64,000 nt of DNA from Candidatus Latescibacterota bacterium (GCA_965248435.1 OZ252100.1:4608001-4672000), one strand, 5' to 3'; shown: positions 10,710-48,056, counted from the stretch's first letter. Numbers and translations: made by a program. Notes: a model not told the origin generated them from the letters alone.

Positions 10710-10769
10710 CGGGTACCGGGGAACCAAAACACGGGTACCGGGGAACCGAAACACGGGTACCGGGGAACC
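10710..10769. repeat. 22-bp tandem repeat (2.7 copies)
   Basis: CGGGTACCGGGGAACC(A/G)AAACA units at 10710, 10732, 10754. Confidence 0.85.
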
Positions 10770-10800
10770 TGGCCCAGTTCACGACGCCCTCCACTGGGCC

Positions 10801-10824
10801 GTAGAGACGCCCCGTGGGGCGTCT
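10801..10824. repeat. GTAG-type REP palindrome
   Basis: GTAGAGACGCCCCGTGGGGCGTCT; sister copy at 14219-14246; related palindrome at 58019-58045. Confidence 0.7.
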
Positions 10825-10847
10825 TCGGAAAGATAAAAAGAGACGTC

Positions 10848-12062
10848 ATGACAGACGAGCGACGATCGACGATCGACGAGCGACGGACTTGCGCGATCAT
10901 CTTAGCCGCGGGTTCCGGACGCCGGATGGGGTCAGAGGAGGCCAAGCAGTTTCGATCGCTCGCGGGCAAGCCGGTGCTGGCCCACACGCTTGGCGCCTTC
11001 GAATCGGCGGAGAGCGTGGACCGCGTGGTGGTTGTTGCCAGGGCGGAAGAGATCGACCGATGCCGGGACGAGGTCGTGGACCGGTTCGGGTTCGAGAAAG
11101 TCTTTGCCGTTGTCGAAGGGGGAAAGGAACGGCAGGATTCAGTCGCCGAGGGGCTCAAGGAGGCGAGTGACGCTGAGGTGATCGTGATCCACGACGGGGT
11201 TCGGCCGCTGATTCGGTCGGCACAGATCAATGCCGTCGTGGCCGTTGGATCGCGAGACGGGGCGGCCGTGCTGGCCGTGCCCGTGTCCAGCACGATCAAG
11301 GGCGTGGAGGACGAGTGGGTGCAGGAGACGCTGGATCGTTCGCGGCTCTGGAGCGTGCAGACGCCTCAAGCCTTCCGCGCAGATGTGATCAGGAAGGCGC
11401 ACGAAGAGGCAAGGCGAGACGGTTTTCTGGGGACGGACGATGCGGCGCTCGTGGAGAGGATTGGGGAGCCGGTGAGGGTGGTTGAAGGCCGGTGGGACAA
11501 TTTGAAGCTGACGACGCAAGAGGACTTCGAGATGGCGGAACAGATCGTGATGCATCGGGCCGGGACGAGCGCGCTCCGGATCGGACACGGCTATGACGTC
11601 CACCGGCTTGAATCGGGTCGGCCGCTCATCCTGGGGGGCGTTGAGGTTCCGCACGAGCGTGGGCTCGCCGGCCACTCGGACGCAGACGTCCTGTCGCACG
11701 CGGTCACGGACGCGATCCTGGGCGCGCTGAGCCTCGGCGATATCGGCCGTCATTTTCCCGATACCGATCCGAAGTATGCCGGGATCTCGAGTCTGAAGCT
11801 GCTGGCGCAGGTGACGGAAAAGGTGAAGGCGGCCGGGGCGGTAATCGTGAACGTGGATGCGACCGTGATGGCTCAGCGCCCGAAGCTCTCGCCCCATATT
11901 CCGGAGATGGAATCCCGCATCGCTAAGGCGTTGGGAATCGGCTCCGAGCTCATTTCCGTAAAAGCGACGACGACGGAGGGGCTCGGTTTCGTGGGGACGG
12001 AGGAGGGGATGGCGGCGCAGGCTGTGGCGCTGCTTGGAGTGGGCAAGCCTGGAGAGGGATAG
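10848..12062 (+). CDS. ispDF: bifunctional IspD/IspF (MEP pathway)
   Basis: [39 protein letters not shown]; then [34 protein letters not shown]. Confidence 0.95.
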
Positions 12063-15852: not shown

Positions 15853-16031
15853 TCGGAAAAGCTGGATCACTAAAAGACACGAAATCCCACGAAAACACAC
15901 GAAGCCCCACCTCCCCCGCATACTTATGAGCTGATTGCGATTCACGATCGACGAACGACGCAATCGGAATATAGGAAGGAAGAGCAAAAAGTTTACTGAA
16001 GGGCGAATTGACTCGCTGCGTACCTACCGAA

Positions 16032-16104
16032 GCCGCCTTAGCTCAACCGGTAGAGCAACGGATTTGTAATCCGTAGGTTGGGGGTTCGAGTCCCCTGGGC
16101 GGCT
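16032..16104 (+). tRNA. tRNA-Thr(UGU), CCA not encoded
   Basis: GCCGCCT/GGGCGGC acceptor stem, D-arm GCTC..GAGC, anticodon arm ACGGA-TTTGTAA-TCCGT, T-arm GGGGG-TTCGAGT-CCCCT. Confidence 0.95.
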
Positions 16105-17493
16105 TTAAAACACGTGGATCGTGGATCGTCGCTCGTCGTTCGCAAGCAGAAGTCAGTTCACCGCTTGGACCTTGCCCGGGAGTGGGCTCAGACGGTTAAA
16201 GCGGATGCCATTCGCGGCGAGATTCGCGGAAATAGGAAGCTGGAGCCCATACCGTTTGGCACATTCGCTGATGAATACCTGAAGGTCTGGGGTCTTAAGC
16301 GGAAACCAAGCACTGTTGAACGAGAGAAGACCCGCATTGATGGAATCCTAAAACCATATTTCGGACAGAAACCCATCCATACCATTTCCCGCAAGGATAT
16401 TGACGTCTATATTGCCAGGCGCATGAGCGGCGAATTTCGCATACGCATCTCCGGAGGTATCTCCAAGGCAACCGCGAACAGAGAACTTTGTCGTTTGAAG
16501 AACATGCTTCAGAAAGCTGTCGAGTGGGCATACCTACCGAGTAATCGAGCCGAAGGGATCAAGCAGGAACCGGAGAATGTTGAGGAAGCTGACCTTCTAA
16601 GCGAGGAGGAAGTAGCCAGCCTGTTGGAGGCCTGTGACGAAAATATTCAAGCCCTGGTGGTAGCAGCTGTTAATACTGGTATGAGATGGGGAGAGTTAAT
16701 GGCGCTCGAATGGAGGGATATTGACTTTGAGCGGACGCTGATAACTGTGCGGGATTCCAAGAATAATGAGACACGTTATGTACGAATGAATACGGCTGTC
16801 AGCCAAGCCCTGGAATCTCATCAGCGAAATCAGGCACAGAAAGCTGGGGGCATCGGTCCGATTGTCTTCGCAAACCAAGATACAGGCAAGCCCTATCGGG
16901 ACATCCGCGGACCTTTTTACAGAGCTCTACGCAAGGCTGGAATAGCTCGGCACTTTGCTTTTTACGGCCTTCGGCACACAGCTGCCAGCCATCTGGTCAT
17001 GGCAGGTGTTGATCTCCGAACAGTAGGGAAGATCCTTGGACATAAGACGGCTCAGATTACCCTTCGATATGCCCACCTTGCCGAAGACCATCTGAAGGGC
17101 GCCGTTGACAAGCTCGATTTCTCACCCGCAAGGTTCGAAGCGAATCGCGTGGATAAAAGCCTATAAAGACTCCAGGGATTTTCGTTCGAAAGAATCAGGG
17201 CCTTCACTCCTTTGTGATGGCCCTACTTGTATGTCCCTCTAAGCACCTCATGAATGCCATTTATATTCAGGCTTTTCAGGTTATTTCGTCTAGTTTCATA
17301 AGCGTTTGTGCTGTATAGACAAAGGCCGAGGACATTTGTATATTGATTCGTGGTATTTCGGCCGGTTTTGGCTTGGCTTGTTAGAAAATTGTTAGAAAAC
17401 CCCGTGCTGGTTCTATAAGTAGCATTCACGAACAGGTTCAGATTATTTCCCTGTGGGGTGGATTCTGCGAAGTTCGTGATATACCCCGCTTCA
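16060..17493 (+). repeat. ~1.43-kb direct repeat, left copy
   Basis: Aligns with 41821-43260 apart from scattered substitutions and two small indels. Confidence 0.95.
16114..17166 (+). CDS. tyrosine integrase, probably 5'-truncated and catalytically impaired (HxxR His to Tyr)
   Basis: TGMRWGE, DSKN, FYGLRH, LGHK, RYAH; no clear RBS or start outside the tRNA. Confidence 0.75.
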   Translation: MDRGSSLVVRKQKSVHRLDLAREWAQTVKADAIRGEIRGNRKLEPIPFGTFADEYLKVWGLKRKPSTVEREKTRIDGILKPYFGQKPIHTISRKDIDVYIARRMSGEFRIRISGGISKATANRELCRLKNMLQKAVEWAYLPSNRAEGIKQEPENVEEADLLSEEEVASLLEACDENIQALVVAAVNTGMRWGELMALEWRDIDFERTLITVRDSKNNETRYVRMNTAVSQALESHQRNQAQKAGGIGPIVFANQDTGKPYRDIRGPFYRALRKAGIARHFAFYGLRHTAASHLVMAGVDLRTVGKILGHKTAQITLRYAHLAEDHLKGAVDKLDFSPARFEANRVDKSL

Positions 17494-41559: not shown

Positions 41560-41874
41560 GTCAATGAAATCATGGCAAAGCTCTGTAATTAGGGCTTTGC
41601 CTTTTCTGTTGCGGGGGAATCAATCTGAAGGAAGCTTTGACTGGACAGACTGTCCTCCCAAAGTTCAGCTCTGGGTCTCCATAAAGTCTCCATCGAAATG
41701 TACAAACCGGTTGTATTGCATTTTCCTTGATTTAATTTCATTAAAGTCATATCCTTTTGGGCATCAGCGAGTTGTGGATAAACTTGTTGCAGCCCAATGA
41801 GTTACATAATCCTTCAGAGTGGATTTGTAATCCGTAGGTTGGGGGTTCGAGTCCCCTGGGCGGCTTTAAAACAC

Positions 41875-42919
41875 GTGGATCGTGGATCGTCGCTCGTCGT
41901 TCGCAAGCAGAAGTCAGTTCACCGCTTGGACCTTGCCCGGGAGTGGGCTCAGACGGTTAAAGCGGATGCCCTTCGCGGCGAGATTCGCGGAAAGAAGAAG
42001 CTGGAGCCCATACCGTTTGGCACATTCGCTGATGAATACCTGAAGGTCTGGGGTCTTAAGCGGAAACCAAGCACTGTTGAACGAGAGAAGACCCGCATTG
42101 ATGGAATCCTAAAACCATATTTTGGACAGAAACCCATTCAAACCATTTCTCGCAAGGACATTGACCTCTATATTGCTAAACGGCTGAGCGGCGAATTTCG
42201 CATACGGCTCTCCGGAGGTATCTCCAAAGCTACCGCGAACAGAGAACTTTGTCGTTTGAAGAACATGCTTCAGAAAGCTGTCGAATGGGGATACCTACCG
42301 AGTAATCCAGCTGAAGGGGTCAAGCAGGAACCAGAGAAAGTTGAGGAAGCTGACTTTCTAAGTAGTAGCCAGCCTGTTGGAGGCCTGTGACGAAAATATT
42401 CAAGCCCTGGTGGTAGCAGCTGTTAATACAGGCATGAGATGGGGAGAGTTAATGGCGCTCGAATGGAGGGATATTGACTTTGAGCGGACGCTGATAACTG
42501 TGCGGGATTCCAAGAACAATGAGACACGTTATGTACGAATGAATACGGCTGTCAGCCAAACCCTGGAATCTCATCAGCGAAATCAGGCACAGAAGGCCGG
42601 CGGCATTGTTCCGATTGTCTTCGCAAACCCGGATACTGGCAAGCCCTATCGGGACATCCGCGGGCCTTTTTACAGAGCTCTGCGCAAGGCTGGAATTGCT
42701 CGACACTTTTCTTTTCACGGTCTTCGGCACACAGCCGCCAGTCATCTAGTCATGGCAGGTGTTGATCTCCGAGCAGTAGGGAAGATCCTTGGGCACAAGA
42801 CCGCACAGATTACCCTTCGATACGCCCATCTTGGTCATGACTATCTGAAGGGGGCAGTTGACAGGCTCGATTTCTCACCCGCAAGATTCGAAGCAAATCG
42901 TGCGGATAAAAGCCTATAA
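41875..42919 (+). pseudogene. frameshifted tyrosine integrase (copy 2)
   Basis: Net 8-bp deletion near 42362 relative to copy 1 splits it into ORFs 41797-42390 and 42377-42919; FHGLRH intact. Confidence 0.9.
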
Positions 42920-42990
42920 AGACTCCAGGGATTTTCGTTCGAAAGAATCAGGGCCTTCACTCTTTTGTGAAGGCCCTACTTGTATGTCCC

Positions 42991-43027
42991 TCTAAGCGGG
43001 TGGAAAGCATGACCTCATGAATGCCAT
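42991..43027 (-). pseudogene. degenerate tRNA-Ala(GGC) 3' fragment (att relic)
   Basis: Reverse complement ATGGCATTCATGAGGTCATGCTTTCCACCCGCTTAG resembles the tRNA-Ala(GGC) anticodon-to-T-arm region; a shorter version at ~17239-17261. Confidence 0.5.
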
Positions 43028-43451
43028 TTATATTCAGGCTTTTCAGGTTATTTCGTCTAGTTTCATAAGCGTTTGTGCTGTATAGACAAAGGCCGAGGAC
43101 ATTTGTATATTGATTCGTGGTATTTCGGCCGGTTTTGGCTTGGCTTGTTAGAAAATTGTTAGAAAACCCCGTGCTGGTTCTATAGGTAGCATTCACGAAC
43201 AGGTTCAGATTATTTCCCTGTGGGGTGGATTCTGCGAAGTTCGTGATATACCCCGCTTCAGCCAATATTGCGAACTGGTTCGCTAATGCAGTAGTTGAAC
43301 TAAACCGCTTCGCGGTGGCCTGCTGCAAGGCCTTTGCTCTTTGACAACCAGGATATGATACCGTGCAAGTCCGGAGCCACTTTGCAAATGGCTCTGTGCT
43401 TTGCATCCTCCTTCTGCTAACAACGTCCACCATCAGCAGAAGGAGAGAGCC

Positions 43452-44303
43452 ATGACCAAGCATCGGAAGCGAATGATCCGGGACATGCAGTTGAAAGGTT
43501 TAGATCCGGATACGCAGAAGGCGTACGTGAGCGGAGTGGCCGGGCTGTGTCGTTACTGCAAGACACCGCCCGACCGGCTCAGCGAAGAAGAGATCCGCGC
43601 CTATCTGCACTATCTGATCACTGAGCGGAAGCTGTCCCAAAGCTATGTCAACCAGGTATACAGCGGGCTGAAGTTTCTGTTCCAAACGACGTTGAAGCGT
43701 GACTGGGTCGAGTGGGGCATCCCTCGTGCGAAGAAGGCAAAGAAGCTCCCGGTGGTACTCTCCACAGAGGAAGTGCAGCGGCTGATCGACAGGACCAACA
43801 ACCTGAAACACCGTACGCTGCTGATGGTCATTTACTCTGGCGGGCTCAGACTGAGTGAGGCCATCGGGCTAAAGCTTTCCGATATCGACAGTGACCGGAT
43901 GCTGATCCGTGTGCGGGGCAAAGGCCAAAAAGAGCGAGAGACGCTTCTGGCCCAGGAGGCCTTAAAGGCACTCCGCGTCTATTGGCGCACCAACCCGTCT
44001 CGCGATTGGCTGTTCCCCGGCGAAAGACCGGACGCGCCGCTCCATGCTCGCACTGTCCAGAAAGTCTTCGAGCAGGCCTGCCGACGCGCGGAGATACAAA
44101 AGCGTGCGAGTGTCCACTCGCTGCGTCACAGCTTCGCCACGCATCTTCTGGACAACGGAGTCGACATCCGCTTCGTCCAACAACTGTTGGGTCACACGAG
44201 CATTCGAACCACCACCGTCTACCTCCACGTCACCACCCGGGACCTCACGCGTATCAGAAGCCCCCTGGACCTTTTGGGAGATGAAGACAAGCCGACTTCG
44301 TAG
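43452..44303 (+). CDS. IS91-associated tyrosine recombinase (SAM_4 N-domain)
   Basis: AAGGAG RBS; T..AY..V, KKLPVVLS.EEV, GLRLSE, GKGQKER, HSLRHSFATHLL, LGH, TTVYLH; all catalytic residues present. Confidence 0.92.
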   Translation: MTKHRKRMIRDMQLKGLDPDTQKAYVSGVAGLCRYCKTPPDRLSEEEIRAYLHYLITERKLSQSYVNQVYSGLKFLFQTTLKRDWVEWGIPRAKKAKKLPVVLSTEEVQRLIDRTNNLKHRTLLMVIYSGGLRLSEAIGLKLSDIDSDRMLIRVRGKGQKERETLLAQEALKALRVYWRTNPSRDWLFPGERPDAPLHARTVQKVFEQACRRAEIQKRASVHSLRHSFATHLLDNGVDIRFVQQLLGHTSIRTTTVYLHVTTRDLTRIRSPLDLLGDEDKPTS

Positions 44304-44315
44304 CGGAGGTCGGCC

Positions 44316-45500
44316 ATGTCACAGGCTCTCGAAGTCGCCGACATCTTCCGGGCCCACGGAGACAGCTATCAAGTAGAATACGGTGATCACATGCCGCTTC
44401 GGCAGAAGCGGGCCATGCGGGCTATCCAGATCTGCCGAACAGCTGCGCTGGGCGGACACGTGGAAGTGTGCGGACACTGCGGAGCGAAGCGGATCGCCTA
44501 CAACTCCTGCCGCAACCGGCACTGTACGAAGTGCCAGTTCCTGACGACCGAACGATGGATCGACGCTCGTAAAGAGGATCTCCTTCCGATCCCATACTTC
44601 CACGTCGTCTTCACGTTGCCCGAGCCCCTGCGGCCGCTTGCTCTGCGGAACCAGAAGCTGATCTACAACCTGGTGTTTAAAGCCGCATCGCAGAGTCTTC
44701 TGGAGCTGGCGCGGGAACGGAAGTATCTTGGAGCGCAGATCGGCTTTACCGCCGTGCTTCATACATGGTCTCAGACACTCATCGACCACCCGCATCTGCA
44801 CTGTATCGTAACTGGAGGTGGGCTGACCCACGACGGTCAGGAATGGAAGGCGGCGCGACGGGGCTTCTTTCTACCCGTAAAAGTTCTGTCCCGACTGTTC
44901 CGGGGGAAGTTCCTTGCGTTCCTGAAGGACGCGCACCAGGAAGGCCTTCTGGCGTTCCCGGGATTGAGTGCTCCACTGGAAGATGCGTTCTTCGATCTGC
45001 TTCGGGGTCTTTACCAGAGAGAATGGACCGTTTACGTCAAGCCGACTTTTGCGGATCCAGAACGCGTCGTGGCCTATCTGGGACGATACACACACCGGAT
45101 CGCCATCTCCAACCACCGGCTGGTCGCCTGTGAGGGCGACCGGGTCTCATTCCACTACCGGGACCGCCAGGACGGCAACCGACGGAAGCTGATGACCGTC
45201 GATGCCTACGAGTTCATCCGGCGGTTCCTGCTTCACATCCTGCCGGATGGCTTCGTGAAGATCCGGCACTACGGACTGCTCAGCAATCGGGGTCGCCGGA
45301 AAAAGCTCGCACGATGCCGTAGGCTCCTGGGCACTGTATGCACGACGGCTTCCGCAGCCACAAAGGCGACCTGGCAGGACCTTCTGCTCCGGGTAACAGG
45401 CATCGATCTTCAGGTCTGTGCGCAGTGCGGAGGCCCTATGCTCACAGTCGGAACCCTCGCGCCTCTGCGAGCGCCTCCGGCACATGTTGCCGTAGCTTGA
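44316..45500 (+). CDS. IS91 family (HUH Y2) transposase
   Basis: CGHCG..YNSCRNRHC.KCQ Zn domain, FHVVFTLP, HTW..HPHLH, YLGRY, FIRRFLLH.LP.GF.KIRHYG. Confidence 0.95.
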   Translation: MSQALEVADIFRAHGDSYQVEYGDHMPLRQKRAMRAIQICRTAALGGHVEVCGHCGAKRIAYNSCRNRHCTKCQFLTTERWIDARKEDLLPIPYFHVVFTLPEPLRPLALRNQKLIYNLVFKAASQSLLELARERKYLGAQIGFTAVLHTWSQTLIDHPHLHCIVTGGGLTHDGQEWKAARRGFFLPVKVLSRLFRGKFLAFLKDAHQEGLLAFPGLSAPLEDAFFDLLRGLYQREWTVYVKPTFADPERVVAYLGRYTHRIAISNHRLVACEGDRVSFHYRDRQDGNRRKLMTVDAYEFIRRFLLHILPDGFVKIRHYGLLSNRGRRKKLARCRRLLGTVCTTASAATKATWQDLLLRVTGIDLQVCAQCGGPMLTVGTLAPLRAPPAHVAVA

Positions 45501-45705
45501 GCTCCTACACCATCCCTTGCCCGCAAGCCCAACCACCCAACACGGCAGTAGTCTGTCCACTCTTTGAGCTTGGTAGAGCGACTATGGGATCCTGCGACAT
45601 CGGCCCCTCCAAACAGCTTCAAATACGGTCCGATGACTGGGCCAGCCCAGCGGTCCTTACACAAGAATCACTCATCCAATCCCCATAGGCAGGTGAAGCG
45701 GCTTC

Positions 45706-45780
45706 GTTCAACACCGTGTATCCGGAATCCCGCTCCCATCCACGCTTCTCCGACTCCGGATACACGCTTAATCGTTATAC
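45706..45780 (+). other. attC-like recombination site 1
   Basis: R'' GTTCAAC (45706-12), stem CGTGTATCCGGA/TCCGGATACACG, R' GTTATAC (45774-80). Confidence 0.7.
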
Positions 45781-45814
45781 GGCATTGGCCGGGGAATGAA
45801 TCCAGTAACCACCA

Positions 45815-46375
45815 ATGGCAGAGCAACCTAACCTAGAAACCGACAGACTTCTCCTTCGTCCATTTGTGGAGAAAGATGCGCCGAGAGTCCACAAACTCGC
45901 GGGCGATCGGGAGATCGCAGCCACCACTCTCAACATCCCACATCCATACGAAGCGGGAGACGCGGAGAAGTGGATCTCAACCCATAGGAAGGCCTTCGAT
46001 TCCGGAAATGAAGTGATCTTCGCGGTAACCCTCAAGTTAGATGGATTGCTCATTGGCGCGATCGGGCTTGTAATCAGCCGACCACATGACAGAGGGGAGA
46101 TGGGATACTGGATCGGCAAGGAATACTGGGGAAGCGGTTACTGCACAGAAGCTGCGAAGGCTGTTTTGCACTACGGTTTTGACGAACTCGGGTTGAACAA
46201 GATTCACGCGAGGCACATGGACACCAATCCGGCCTCTGGGCGAGTCCTAGAGAAGATCGGTATGGGCTACGAGGGGTGTTTGAAGCAACATTACAAGAAG
46301 TGGGATGCCTTCGGTGATTACCACGTTTACGGAATCCTGCGAGACGAATACCAACAGCAAAGAACAAAATCATAG
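45815..46375 (+). CDS. RimJ/RimL-type GNAT acetyltransferase (gene cassette)
   Basis: LETDRLLLRPF, EMGYWIGKEYWGSGY.TEA, N.ASGRVLEKIGM..EG. Confidence 0.92.
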   Translation: MAEQPNLETDRLLLRPFVEKDAPRVHKLAGDREIAATTLNIPHPYEAGDAEKWISTHRKAFDSGNEVIFAVTLKLDGLLIGAIGLVISRPHDRGEMGYWIGKEYWGSGYCTEAAKAVLHYGFDELGLNKIHARHMDTNPASGRVLEKIGMGYEGCLKQHYKKWDAFGDYHVYGILRDEYQQQRTKS

Positions 46376-46390
46376 AACCTGGCCAACGCC

Positions 46391-46534
46391 GTATAACACG
46401 CCGGGCTGCGGCTCCGGCGCATTCGCGCCTCCGCCTAACCTGCCTATCGCTGTCACGCCGCTTGCTTTATCAAAACCGTGGGGGGCAAGCGCCGCGCCAG
46501 CTTGGCAGGTTCGCAGCCCGCGAGACCGTTAAGC
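46391..46534 (+). other. attC site 2
   Basis: R'' GTATAAC 15 bp after the GNAT stop; stems CGGGCTGCG/CGCAGCCCG, AACCTGCC/GGCAGGTT, GCTTGC/GCAAGC; R' GTTAAGC. Confidence 0.8.
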
Positions 46535-46737
46535 GCACATGTTGTTTTTTGTGTAATGGAAACTATAAGGGAGCAAATGCAGCCTCGAACCACACACAAA
46601 TCTGCATATTTCCTGTCTAACTGGACTAAGGGTATTCATTTAGCGTTGAAACCGTGTATGAGCGTGCCCGATTGAGCCTGTCGGATCACCAGTGGATGGA
46701 GCACTTCATTATCGCCTTCAAGTCTGAGTAAGATCCG

Positions 46738-47904
46738 ATGACTATAACACAAGCATCCGTTGAGGCGCTCACGCGTGGCCCAAAGTATCATTGGTTCGGC
46801 TACTACGATAAGTGCCAGTTCGACCCCACTGGCAGATACGTGCTTGGCATGGAAGTCGACTTTGAACACCGGTCGCCCACGACAGACGATGTCATTTCAA
46901 TCGGGATGATCGATCTGCAGGATGGCAATCGCTGGACCGACCTAGGTCATAGCTCGGCTTGGTGCTGGCAACAGGGCTGCATGCTGCAGTGGCTCCCCGG
47001 CTCCGACACACAGATTGTCTGGAACGATCGGCAGGATGATCGCTTTATCTGCCACGTACTCGACATACGTTCCAGTGAGAAGAAGACGATCCCTTCCCCC
47101 ATCTATACCGTTGCCCCCGACGGCACAACCGCCTTCGCCACGGATTTCAGTCGCAATAACGACACGCGGCCCGGTTATGGCTATCCGGGCATCCCCGACC
47201 CCAACGGGGACTGCCTCGCACCGGACAACTCGGGCATCTGGCGAGTGGACCTCGAGAGCGGAAAAAACGAACTGATTCTCACCATCGCCGACGTCGTGGC
47301 ACTCCCCTACCCGCACGGAGACCTGACCAGGGCAAAGCACTGGTTCAACCACCTGCTGGTCAGTCCCGACGCCTCACGCCTCGAGTTCTTGCATCGATGG
47401 CAAGAGGAGGGCACGCCGAGCCGTCGAACCCGAATGCTGACGTGTGCGCCCGACGGAAGTGATGTGCGCGTCGTGGATGACTGCGGCGTGACATCACATT
47501 TTATATGGCACGATGCTGAGCACATTCTGGCGTGGTCCCAGGCACATTCCTCCCGCGGGAATTTCTGTCTGTTCAACGAGCGTACGGGCAGCTACGAGCC
47601 CATTGGCAGTGACCTGATGACGCGGGATGGTCACGTCAATTGCCTGCCGCAAGCCGAGTGGCTCGTGAACGACACCTATCCGAACGAAGACAGAGTGCGA
47701 AGCCTGTACCTATATCACCTACCAAGTGCTCTACGAATTGACATAGGAGGATTCTTTACGCCCCCGGAATACGACGGCAAGTGGCGTTGTGACCTCCATC
47801 CAAGACTGAGTCCCGACGGCTACAAAGTGATCGTTGACTCTGCGCACGGAGGGAATGGCAGGCAGATGTACCTGATGGATATTGGCGATATCATCGCGCA
47901 TTGA
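46738..47904 (+). CDS. beta-propeller protein (oligogalacturonate lyase/TolB-like)
   Basis: FGYYDK, AWCWQQGCMLQW, HWFNHLL.SPD, SHFIW, DGH, DTYP, RCDLHPR.SPDG. Confidence 0.7.
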   Translation: MTITQASVEALTRGPKYHWFGYYDKCQFDPTGRYVLGMEVDFEHRSPTTDDVISIGMIDLQDGNRWTDLGHSSAWCWQQGCMLQWLPGSDTQIVWNDRQDDRFICHVLDIRSSEKKTIPSPIYTVAPDGTTAFATDFSRNNDTRPGYGYPGIPDPNGDCLAPDNSGIWRVDLESGKNELILTIADVVALPYPHGDLTRAKHWFNHLLVSPDASRLEFLHRWQEEGTPSRRTRMLTCAPDGSDVRVVDDCGVTSHFIWHDAEHILAWSQAHSSRGNFCLFNERTGSYEPIGSDLMTRDGHVNCLPQAEWLVNDTYPNEDRVRSLYLYHLPSALRIDIGGFFTPPEYDGKWRCDLHPRLSPDGYKVIVDSAHGGNGRQMYLMDIGDIIAH

Positions 47905-47932
47905 TCGTGAGCGTGTGGAAGAGGAGATGATG

Positions 47933-48056
47933 ATGGACGTCTATGGCCGACTGGGAGTCAGGAAGACTAATCAATACGTGCGGCTATGCCACGGATCTGG
48001 GTGGCTCGCTCATGTCGCCGGAGGTCCTCGAGGCGATGGCCGAGGCGTCTCGGTCG
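47933..48056 (+). pseudogene. frameshifted N-terminal remnant of a SelA/DgaE-like PLP enzyme
   Basis: MDVYGRLGVRK then, in another frame, INTCGYATDLGGSLMSPEVLEAMAEAS; GAGGAG RBS. Confidence 0.65.

Follow-up and report, generated by a model that had tools for sequence, protein, structure and literature searches.

The stretch of DNA considered here (hereafter the window, meaning all of its 64,000 nucleotides (nt)) comes from Candidatus Latescibacterota bacterium (GCA_965248435.1 OZ252100.1:4608001-4672000) and contains a predicted mobile element of the IS91 family, in which a tyrosine recombinase gene, int, lies ahead of the transposase gene, tnpA. The element sits at the G|TT recombination point of an integron-type site (the bar marks the junction) and is followed by a gene cassette with its own attC site. 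The genome comprises 5.67 Mb in 2 contigs and is 97.5% complete; other genomes and loci are cited by handle (G..., L...). An earlier note on this locus, drawn from the sequence alone, had described an integron-like cassette unit attached to these two genes; the intact recombinase and HUH-Y2 transposase, the GNAT open reading frame (ORF) and the strings that it quoted all lie where it had placed them, and they are not products of chance: the genome has six instances of the int-tnpA block and tens of the attC family. The features of the locus are as follows, with positions counted from the first letter of the window.

43161..43294, + strand: attI-like target site of ~130 bp whose last bases are ...GCTAATGCAGTA G|TT, the element being inserted at the last G (nhmmer profile of six left flanks)
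43294..45774, + strand: mobile element, ISAzo26-type, IS91 family (blastn against own genome, six copies)
43294..43316, + strand: left end, terIS-like, with the left terminal inverted repeat, GTTGAAC and the palindrome ACCGC-TTC-GCGGT (17/20 complementary to 45693-45712)
43452..44303, + strand: Int, tyrosine recombinase, IntI/Xer-like, 283 aa (PF00589, PF13495)
44316..45500, + strand: TnpA, IS91-family Y2 HUH transposase, 394 aa (NF033538, PF04986, PF14319)
45681..45712, + strand: CCCCATAGG box and right inverted repeat GTGAAGCGGCTTCGTTCAAC (read directly in the sequence)
45713..45774, + strand: right-end hairpin, then spacer GCTTAATC and terminal G (DNA fold; conserved in relatives)
45775..46528, + strand: GNAT gene cassette TTATAC...G (second copy with the same boundaries)
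45815..46375, + strand: GNAT ORF (PF13302, 130.6 bits)
46391..46534, + strand: attC of the GNAT cassette, R'' GTATAAC 46391-46397, R' GTTAAGC 46528-46534 (covariance model R1)

The element and its ends

Counting the G of G|TTGAAC as its first base and the G that precedes |TT on the right as its last, the element is 2,481 nt long, and exactly this length, with zero indels, is found in all six copies, which are 97.2-100% identical by blastn. Copies A (that of the window), B and C are 2-4 substitutions apart and copies D, E and F 3-8, with ~50 between the two groups. On the left the high identity of the copies begins at G|TTGAAC, and the boundary previously set at 43261 is corrected to 43294; on the right every copy closes with ...GCTTAATCG|TTA, after which the six continue differently (TTATAC in three, TTAAGT, TTAACT and TTAGCG in the others). 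Contigs assembled from public runs break at 43293/4 and 45777, as the edges of a repeat would; of four such runs compared, one contig from another isolate covers 42000-46171 unchanged, and an empty site at the window locus was not seen in their assembled contigs.

Both genes are intact in all six copies and are 12 nt apart, the recombinase gene being directly upstream of tnpA as the ISAzo26 type requires. Int scores 154 bits to PF00589 and 77 bits to PF13495; TnpA scores 452.7 bits to NF033538 (cut-off 125), 208 bits to PF04986 and 110 bits to PF14319, carries the motifs HPHLH and YLGRY and, as a Y2 HUH transposase with an N-terminal zinc-binding domain, has the make-up that defines the IS91 family. 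Between the sublineages there are 18-20 synonymous against 8 non-synonymous differences in the codons of Int and 8-9 against 11 in those of TnpA, and Int is under purifying selection; divergence is 0.6-0.7% in the non-coding ends against 1.8-3.3% in the genes. Taken on its sequence, the int-tnpA block is one mobile unit, an ISAzo26-type member of the IS91 family. A scan of 43100-46700 for promoters and terminators gave nothing above shuffles, and a Pc promoter was not identifiable there (1 promoter-like match against 1.4 expected).

As is characteristic of IS91, the two ends are unlike each other and hold subterminal palindromes (terIS and oriIS), and the target is not duplicated. The first 20 nt, GTTGAACTAAACCGCTTCGC, and GTGAAGCGGCTTCGTTCAAC at 45693-45712 are inverted repeats at 17/20 positions and the terminal heptamers, GTTGAAC and GTTCAAC, are exact complements; the right end, which reads ...GGCTTCGTTCAAC at 45700-45712, also holds the subterminal palindrome GAAGC-G-GCTTC. 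What had been taken for the R'' box of an attC is the last 7 nt of this right inverted repeat. Outside the repeat, and still inside the six-copy block, are 62 nt with a hairpin whose 11-bp stem pairs GTGTATCCGGA (45716-45726) with TCCGGATACAC (45755-45765) around a 28-nt loop; GCTTAATC follows, and then GTTATAC at 45774-45780. Folded as DNA, the hairpin region gives -15.8 kcal/mol (z -2.3) on the top strand and -18.4 kcal/mol (z -2.7; 0/200 shuffles as good) on the bottom strand, and the last 181 nt of the element show one substitution among the six copies. Perfect stems of 10-11 bp, different in sequence, occupy the same place in all six lineages examined, the two arms being:

Window genome: GTGTATCCGGA / TCCGGATACAC
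G004, first type: TTGTATACGGA / TCCGTATACAA
G004, second type: TTGTTTGCGGA / TCCGCAAACAA
ISAzo26: TTTTTAGCCT / AGGCTAAAAA
Sinorhizobium plasmid: GAGGTCGCGC / GCGCGACCTC
Pirellulales metagenome-assembled genomes (MAGs): GTTTAATCCG / CGGATTAAAC

The examined members have a common plan of ends: at the left is a repeat that includes a small palindrome, and at the right come a CCCCATAG box, a second repeat with GTTC or GTCC as its last bases, and the hairpin; the CCCCATAG(G) box and the GTTC/GTCC ending are kept in relatives of other phyla, and the left-end motif is found at the left end of relatives too. Since the stems are perfect and of differing sequence in 6/6 lineages, proteobacterial relatives included, and the pairing is thus kept by covariation, the hairpin is a functional part of this group of insertion sequences (IS) and not a captured attC. 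The 75-bp attC-like hairpin of the earlier account is therefore real and conserved, and it belongs to the right end of the IS; as a captured attC it was rejected, being present in the Aromatoleum and Sinorhizobium plasmid copies too and having no match to the attC model R1.

The integron-type target and its cassettes

The ~130 bp before every copy belong to one diverged family, CTATAGAAAGGCATTCACGAAC ... GCGAATGCAGAAG|TT. The nhmmer profile built from the left flanks of the six copies matches the genome at 11 places (E<=2e-4), with one reverse-strand echo: six are occupied by the element, L015 carries a remnant of it, L009 and L016 are empty and complete, and L017 and window 17394-17492 are partial. 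Empty site L009 ends GAATGCAGAAG|TTAACAG, with attC cassettes next, and L016 ends GAATGCCGTAG|TTAAGTGCAATGCCGGTGCC (...CCGTAG|TTAAGTGCAATGCCGGTGCC; GAATGCCGTAG|TTAAGTG), with an attC cassette next. The L016 junction nearly equals the right flank of copy C, G|TTAAGTGTAATGCCGGTGCC, and from the comparison of this empty site with the filled one it follows that insertion was precise, at or within GTT, and without duplication. Divergence among the sites far exceeds that among the element copies (98-99.9% alike), and the kinship of the sites (B with F, A with E) disagrees with that of the elements (A, B and C together); the elements therefore entered pre-existing sites, and on the same grounds the left ~130 bp was rejected as a part of the element. 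It had been suggested that the element replaces attI; it has instead been inserted into an attI-like site that was already there.

No conserved long hairpin was found in seven copies of the site (RNAalifold, -3 kcal/mol, 5 pairs); a short palindrome, lineage-specific, can be seen by eye 6-10 nt before G|TT (GCGCAC/GTGCGC, ATTACCG/CGGTAAT, ATACAG/CTGTAT). The site profile does not match the element's own right end, and the likeness between the two (CCATAGG box, palindrome, spacer, G|TT) is architectural and not statistical. GTTA follows all six copies, the element itself starting GTTG. This tetranucleotide occurs 12,460 times in the genome, where integron-type positions number at most 87, and the probability of placement at integron-type positions by chance is <1e-8 even for four independent events; placement so far beyond tetranucleotide chance requires that something recognises integron recombination sites.

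The attC sites were scored with R1, a covariance model made from 13 full-length attC sites of the same genome, in whose alignment compensatory changes are seen at 12 of the 24 pairs. The 144-bp site of the window, used as the query of an iterated nhmmer search, gives 76 matches in about nine clusters in the genome. The use of such models here and genome-wide, as proposed earlier, recovers the attC of the GNAT cassette and, in 237 kb of the genome, 60 matches at E<=1; the first hairpin is not recovered. The numbers of attC by locus are:

Copy A (window): 1 same-strand attC after the element
Copy B: 10 attC within the stretch fetched
Copy C: 6 attC
Copy D: 5 attC downstream, also 5 upstream
Copy E: 0 attC downstream
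Copy F: 1 attC, and one weak match
Empty site L009: 5 attC
Empty site L016: 1 attC
Remnant site L015: 1 attC
Partial site L017: 0 attC

Cassettes with attC thus come after 5/6 copies and after 3/4 of the unoccupied sites scanned elsewhere (L009, L015 and L016; not L017).

In the window the only attC-strand R1 match lies at 46380-46543, with a weak reverse-strand echo inside it. It scores 168.2 bits (E 5.6e-39), the site itself being among the 13 used to build the model; as DNA its bottom strand folds at -48.2 kcal/mol (z -4.3), better than the top, and the second, 144-bp attC described previously is upheld. So is the 10-bp complement bounding the GNAT unit, GTTATACGGC (45774-45783) and GCCGTATAAC (46388-46397) being exact complements. 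A second copy of the unit, 97% identical, lies inside another array (C1:1443351-1442588), preceded by an attC end ...GAGAACG|TTATACGG and followed by G|TTACACGC. The G|TT boundaries are present at both loci and the neighbours differ; the GNAT unit, with its strongly supported attC, is a true cassette. The right end of the element, before the GNAT unit of the window, occupies the place taken at the other locus by the 3' end of an attC.

CALIN are clusters of attC without an integrase, with >=2 attC and no intI nearby (as defined in PMC4889954). The window, with one attC, does not qualify; the arrays of copy B (10), copy C (6) and copy D (5+5) do. Nor does the window hold a complete integron: the attI-like site and one attC are present, and canonical intI is absent from window and genome. 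An Rfam scan of 42000-48000 found no attC family, only a sub-threshold chance snoRNA-like match. A strict attC pattern, RYYYAAC ... GTTRRRY with an ungapped L stem, gave 6 places genome-wide and was dropped as too strict for the local family. Members of that family have a conserved side hairpin, CGGCGCATTCGCGCC, off the main stem (window 46415-46430), kept by compensatory changes (5 pairs, 3 with double changes), which gives them a three-way structure that is unusual among attC sites. In the array behind empty site L009, the product of one cassette (10714-11676) belongs to the phosphotransferase enzyme family (PF01636, 108.8 bits).

Several other occurrences of the site may be mentioned. At L015 (C1:5351200-5351310) almost all of the element has been lost by internal deletion, the left-end motif CGCTTCGCGGTGGCC now abutting the right hairpin arm GACTCCGGAT, and a SIR2-family cassette with attC comes next. 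Copy D (L012, C1:2064001-2080000) is in the middle of an array, and the HIT-domain gene preceding it is followed by the attI-like site in place of an attC; here either two arrays have been joined or the site stands in for attC. The partial site at window 17394-17492, which no attC follows, contains only positions 3-101 of the attI-like site and lies in the first of two direct repeats, 17151-17493 and 42904-43260, which are 95% identical and flank ~25 kb with histidine kinases, response regulators and a TonB receptor. A tRNA-Thr (16031-16105) followed by an intact phage-type integrase (16078-17166) precedes this stretch, and a second, broken copy of the integrase, in two ORFs, is found at 41797-42919; the arrangement of 16031-17493 and 41797-43260 looks like tandem integrative islands.

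The recombinase and its relatives

The window had been noted as lacking an IntI, and the same holds for the genome, where nothing exceeds the TIGR02249 cut-off of 265 bits; the best matches are the six copies of Int, each of them matching in two parts, with 104 and 93 bits. The whole Int reaches 195.5 bits on this profile, model positions 177-236 being unmatched, and 219 bits on NF040815 (cut-off 220). Aligned with four canonical IntI of related genomes it shows a gap of ~45 aa at the IntI insertion, which agrees with the earlier impression of a recombinase without that insertion; the catalytic residues R, H-x-x-R, H and Y are retained. Int thus lacks both of the marks used to define IntI, a score above the TIGR02249 cut-off and the insertion. 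The other IntI-like piece in the genome is an 82-aa C-terminal recombinase remnant (C1:4954353-4954601) directly before empty site L009.

A maximum-likelihood tree of 29 proteins separates Xer, canonical IntI (100/99) and a third clade (91/88), the last made up of IS91-linked Ints, including those of other phyla (100/99), and stand-alone Ints (91/88), which form their own clade beside the IS-borne ones. The recombinases of IS91 and IS3 elements have been described as an integron-like subgroup without the IntI insertion (Smyshlyaev, Barabas, Bateman, bioRxiv 10.1101/542381), and the tree agrees with that description; the gene pair and the kinship of Int to IntI are therefore already known.

Fourteen loci with Int relatives and without tnpA were examined, the remnant at L009 being counted apart; those noted include L152, L153, L154, L156, L122, L123, L160, L161, L157 and L151 (G018, G003, G047, G044, G038, G004, G057, G060). 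At seven loci (L122, L152, L153, L154, L156 and L159, and L009 of the window genome) a site of the same kind (~130 bp), CCACCATAGGAAGCATTCC.GAAC ... palindrome ... CCCGTAG|TTA, comes immediately past the stop codon, and L158, L160 and L161 are similar in appearance. Same-strand attC are found downstream in 10/14 of the loci and upstream in none (R1, 7-8 kb fetched), the others having opposite-strand attC (1/14) or zero attC (3/14), and canonical IntI is absent at E<=1e-40 from G003, G018, G038, G044, G047 and G057 (93-100% complete). An integrase without the IntI insertion, a G|TTA site and a co-oriented attC array together look, in sequence at least, like an integron platform with a non-canonical integrase. 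This pattern is drawn from 14 loci and the attC model of one genome's family, and it raises the odds that the IS-borne Int works on such sites. L155 (G001, same genus) departs from all other loci: its Int relative is embedded in an attC array, flanked by attC on either side but on the opposite strand, and has no site behind it.

Among the matched stretches of public genome contigs there are 95 confirmed relatives of Int. The 11 best are 39-48% identical; tnpA is directly downstream in six (L021, L022, L023, L027, L030, L031), from Pirellulales, Eremiobacteraceae, Terriglobia and Acidobacteriota MAGs, two have room but no tnpA, and in three the contig ends too soon. Among plasmids, Int relatives turn up in 458 records at E<=1e-30.

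Close relatives of TnpA occur, among 168 genomes of the same phylum, only in the window genome and in G004, which has four copies of the element, all three of those with a visible left junction being at an integron crossover point. Two lie 185 bp behind a canonical intI, on the same strand, at ...AATTAATAG|TTGAAC, one of these intI genes being intact (464 bits to TIGR02249) and one truncated. The third splits a genuine attC, GCCTAAC, 86 nt, GCTTG | element | TTAGGC, in which R' GTTAGGC is the exact complement of R'' GCCTAAC, and the fourth has a truncated int and keeps the same right-end plan. The copy behind the truncated intI (L121) is interrupted by another transposase-like ORF, its right end being ~1.7 kb farther than in its sister L120. 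At L160 7530-7560, also in G004, an IS left end, GTTGAACTAAGCCGCTTCGCGGCAG, lies exactly at the G|TT ending the site of a stand-alone Int; no int, tnpA or right end was found after it, which makes it a truncated insertion, on a target of the same kind.

Mechanism, meaning and comparison with known systems

Taken as a whole, including its boundaries, its sites and an inferred mechanism involving Int, the locus is best explained by a lineage of elements specialised for the integron recombination point, a reading to which we give a probability of roughly 0.55. Integron integrases are unusual in that they recombine folded single strands. We would propose that TnpA releases the element in the form of a single-stranded circle, which has been demonstrated for IS91, that in this circle the ends would pair (GTTCAAC with GTTGAAC) beside the hairpin to give an attC-like fold, and that Int would then recombine the fold with the G|TT of attI-like or attC sites in the style of cassette integration. 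Single-stranded circles of IS91 with abutted ends do form, and it is the bottom-strand circle that is inserted (PMC13181058). This Int-mediated insertion of a TnpA-made circle is the mechanism that we prefer, at a little under an even chance, and we infer all of its strand-transfer steps.

A number of observations weigh against it. R1 gives no match at 45700-45790 (E<=1), leaving the hairpin unscored, and the right-end stem has no extrahelical bases and has spacers of 3 nt and 8 nt. The spacer geometry of a textbook attC differs from this. No attC lies downstream of copy E. A circle junction or excision product was not seen in the assembled public-run contigs, where rare products would not show, and a single joint in them, 45777 -> 46394, rests on 20 letters. 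The IntI insertion, which Int lacks, is described as needed for specific DNA recognition (10.1101/542381). In a Sinorhizobium plasmid all three copies have unrelated left flanks, and their hairpin is without integron context; the family therefore needs no long site, and what these copies share is a short GA|TTC-like target, the left junctions reading GA|TT and the right ends ...CCCGATTC.

The junctions are explained equally well by the ordinary behaviour of IS91, which inserts 5' to a tetranucleotide (PMC10288648), here GTTA. Owing to three shared bases an IS91 element GTTGAAC...AATC placed 5' to GTTA cannot be told from an integron-type unit TTGAAC...AATCG placed at G|TT. In the main alternative TnpA alone would insert the element by rolling circle, with Int in another role such as the resolution of multimers or circles; the hairpin and right repeat would be the palindromes of oriIS, and GTTG with ACCGC-TTC-GCGGT would be terIS. 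This matches the published plan, in which terIS has one palindrome by the cleavage tetranucleotide, oriIS has one or two, the target is not duplicated and the target tetranucleotide lies next to oriIS (PMC13181058), and it accords with the GTTA after 6/6 copies and with the Sinorhizobium relatives, whose unrelated sites have only a short motif in common. Restriction to integron sites would then come from a preference of TnpA for origin-like targets (a hairpin or short palindrome, 5-10 nt, GTT), such as attC sites and the attI-like site both offer, the latter having its short palindrome, different in each lineage, 6-10 nt before G|TT; attC is known to be targeted also by IS1111-attC and group IIC-attC introns, which likewise make use of single strands or hairpins (PMC3001079, PMC11187229). 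Against this, IS91-type enzymes are known to need only a tetranucleotide, and yet 9/9 intact copies in two genomes, together with two remnants, are at an integron crossover; furthermore, that all copies have an intact, conserved Int, in other phyla as well, speaks for an essential part of Int in the life cycle of the element. Insertion by TnpA alone is a real possibility, although we would wager against it.

It would seem quite improbable that the block is a passive cassette, moved in trans by a resident canonical IntI or by a stand-alone Int-like enzyme such as that of which the remnant C1:4954353-4954601 is left, with no contribution from its own genes to where it is placed. Its G|TT boundaries are cassette-like, its terminal heptamers are complementary, two copies in G004 are directly behind a canonical intI, and the 82-aa remnant does precede an empty site; but the genome has no intact IntI or stand-alone relative, and yet just 2-4 substitutions separate copies A, B and C, which have therefore spread recently. 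The hairpin belongs moreover to the IS family and not to the local attC family, and the block, at 2.5 kb and with two genes and ends of its own, does not resemble a cassette.

Where folded-strand recombination originated, and what moves cassette clusters that have no integrase, are open questions in the field, and in the present case the closest known relatives of IntI share their mobile unit with a producer of single-stranded circles. The element lies on the integron crossover of attI-like and attC sites in a genome with >50 attC and no IntI, and a six-copy IS at that point hints at a link between the IS91 and integron systems. It is conceivable, if doubtful, that IntI-like recombinases without the IntI insertion are working integron-type integrases and that their IS91-borne sister makes the element a mobile integron head. 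If so, the rolling circle would give a folded single strand that Int integrates at G|TT, and the array behind would regain both an integrase and a recombination site; some integrase-less attC clusters would be explained, and single-strand elements of the IS91 type would point to the root of attC recombination. That the IS-borne Int can use integron sites, and that integrase-less arrays are not inert, are both directly testable. Programs for finding integrons that require the IntI insertion would call such arrays integrase-less and miss the stand-alone and IS-borne recombinases. A published insertion of an IS91-family element at attI or attC was not found in full-text searches, which extended to neither the subscription literature nor ISfinder and TnPedia.

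Compared with an integron cassette, the element likewise has G|TT at both boundaries, complementary end heptamers in 6/6 copies, a hairpin between its ends once circular, and a position directly after the attI-like site. It differs in having two genes, 2.5 kb, IS91 ends and its own recombinase and transposase, and in a hairpin that the local attC model does not score and whose stem is without bulged bases. The earlier proposal that the pair travels as its own attC-bearing cassette is sound in so far as this is one mobile unit with G|TT on both sides that heads arrays; it does not hold for the hairpin, which is not an attC.

IS1111-attC elements and group IIC-attC introns are likewise described as mobile elements specific for integron attC (PMC3001079, PMC11187229). 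Their enzymes are an RNA-guided DEDD transposase and a retro-element respectively, whereas here a Y2 HUH transposase is paired with an IntI-like recombinase. The main target of the element is, unlike theirs, an attI-like site, and insertion is at the integron crossover itself. The place of ISCR1 is past the 3' conserved segment, and it is not known to carry a recombinase. The element of the window, in contrast, is at the cassette insertion point and carries Int; what it has in common with ISCR1 of complex class 1 integrons is that the latter is an IS91-related rolling-circle element linked to integrons (PMC3575428). The same source describes an 'inverted integrase' group of integrons, which G004 and apparently G059 resemble in having canonical intI, then the site, then the insertion point, all on the same strand; the window genome differs in being without any intI.

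The closest likeness is to ISAzo26. On plasmid 2 of Aromatoleum aromaticum EbN1 RefSeq has a 'tyrosine-type recombinase/integrase' and then an 'IS91-like element ISAzo26 family transposase', the Int of this type being 45-47% identical to that of the window, and the inverted repeats GTTGGAC/GTCCAAC, the CCCCATAG box and a hairpin past the right repeat are all present; no paper naming ISAzo26 was found in full-text searches. Within this type the Sinorhizobium copies are on short targets, whereas the lineage of the window is found only at integron-type G|TT sites.

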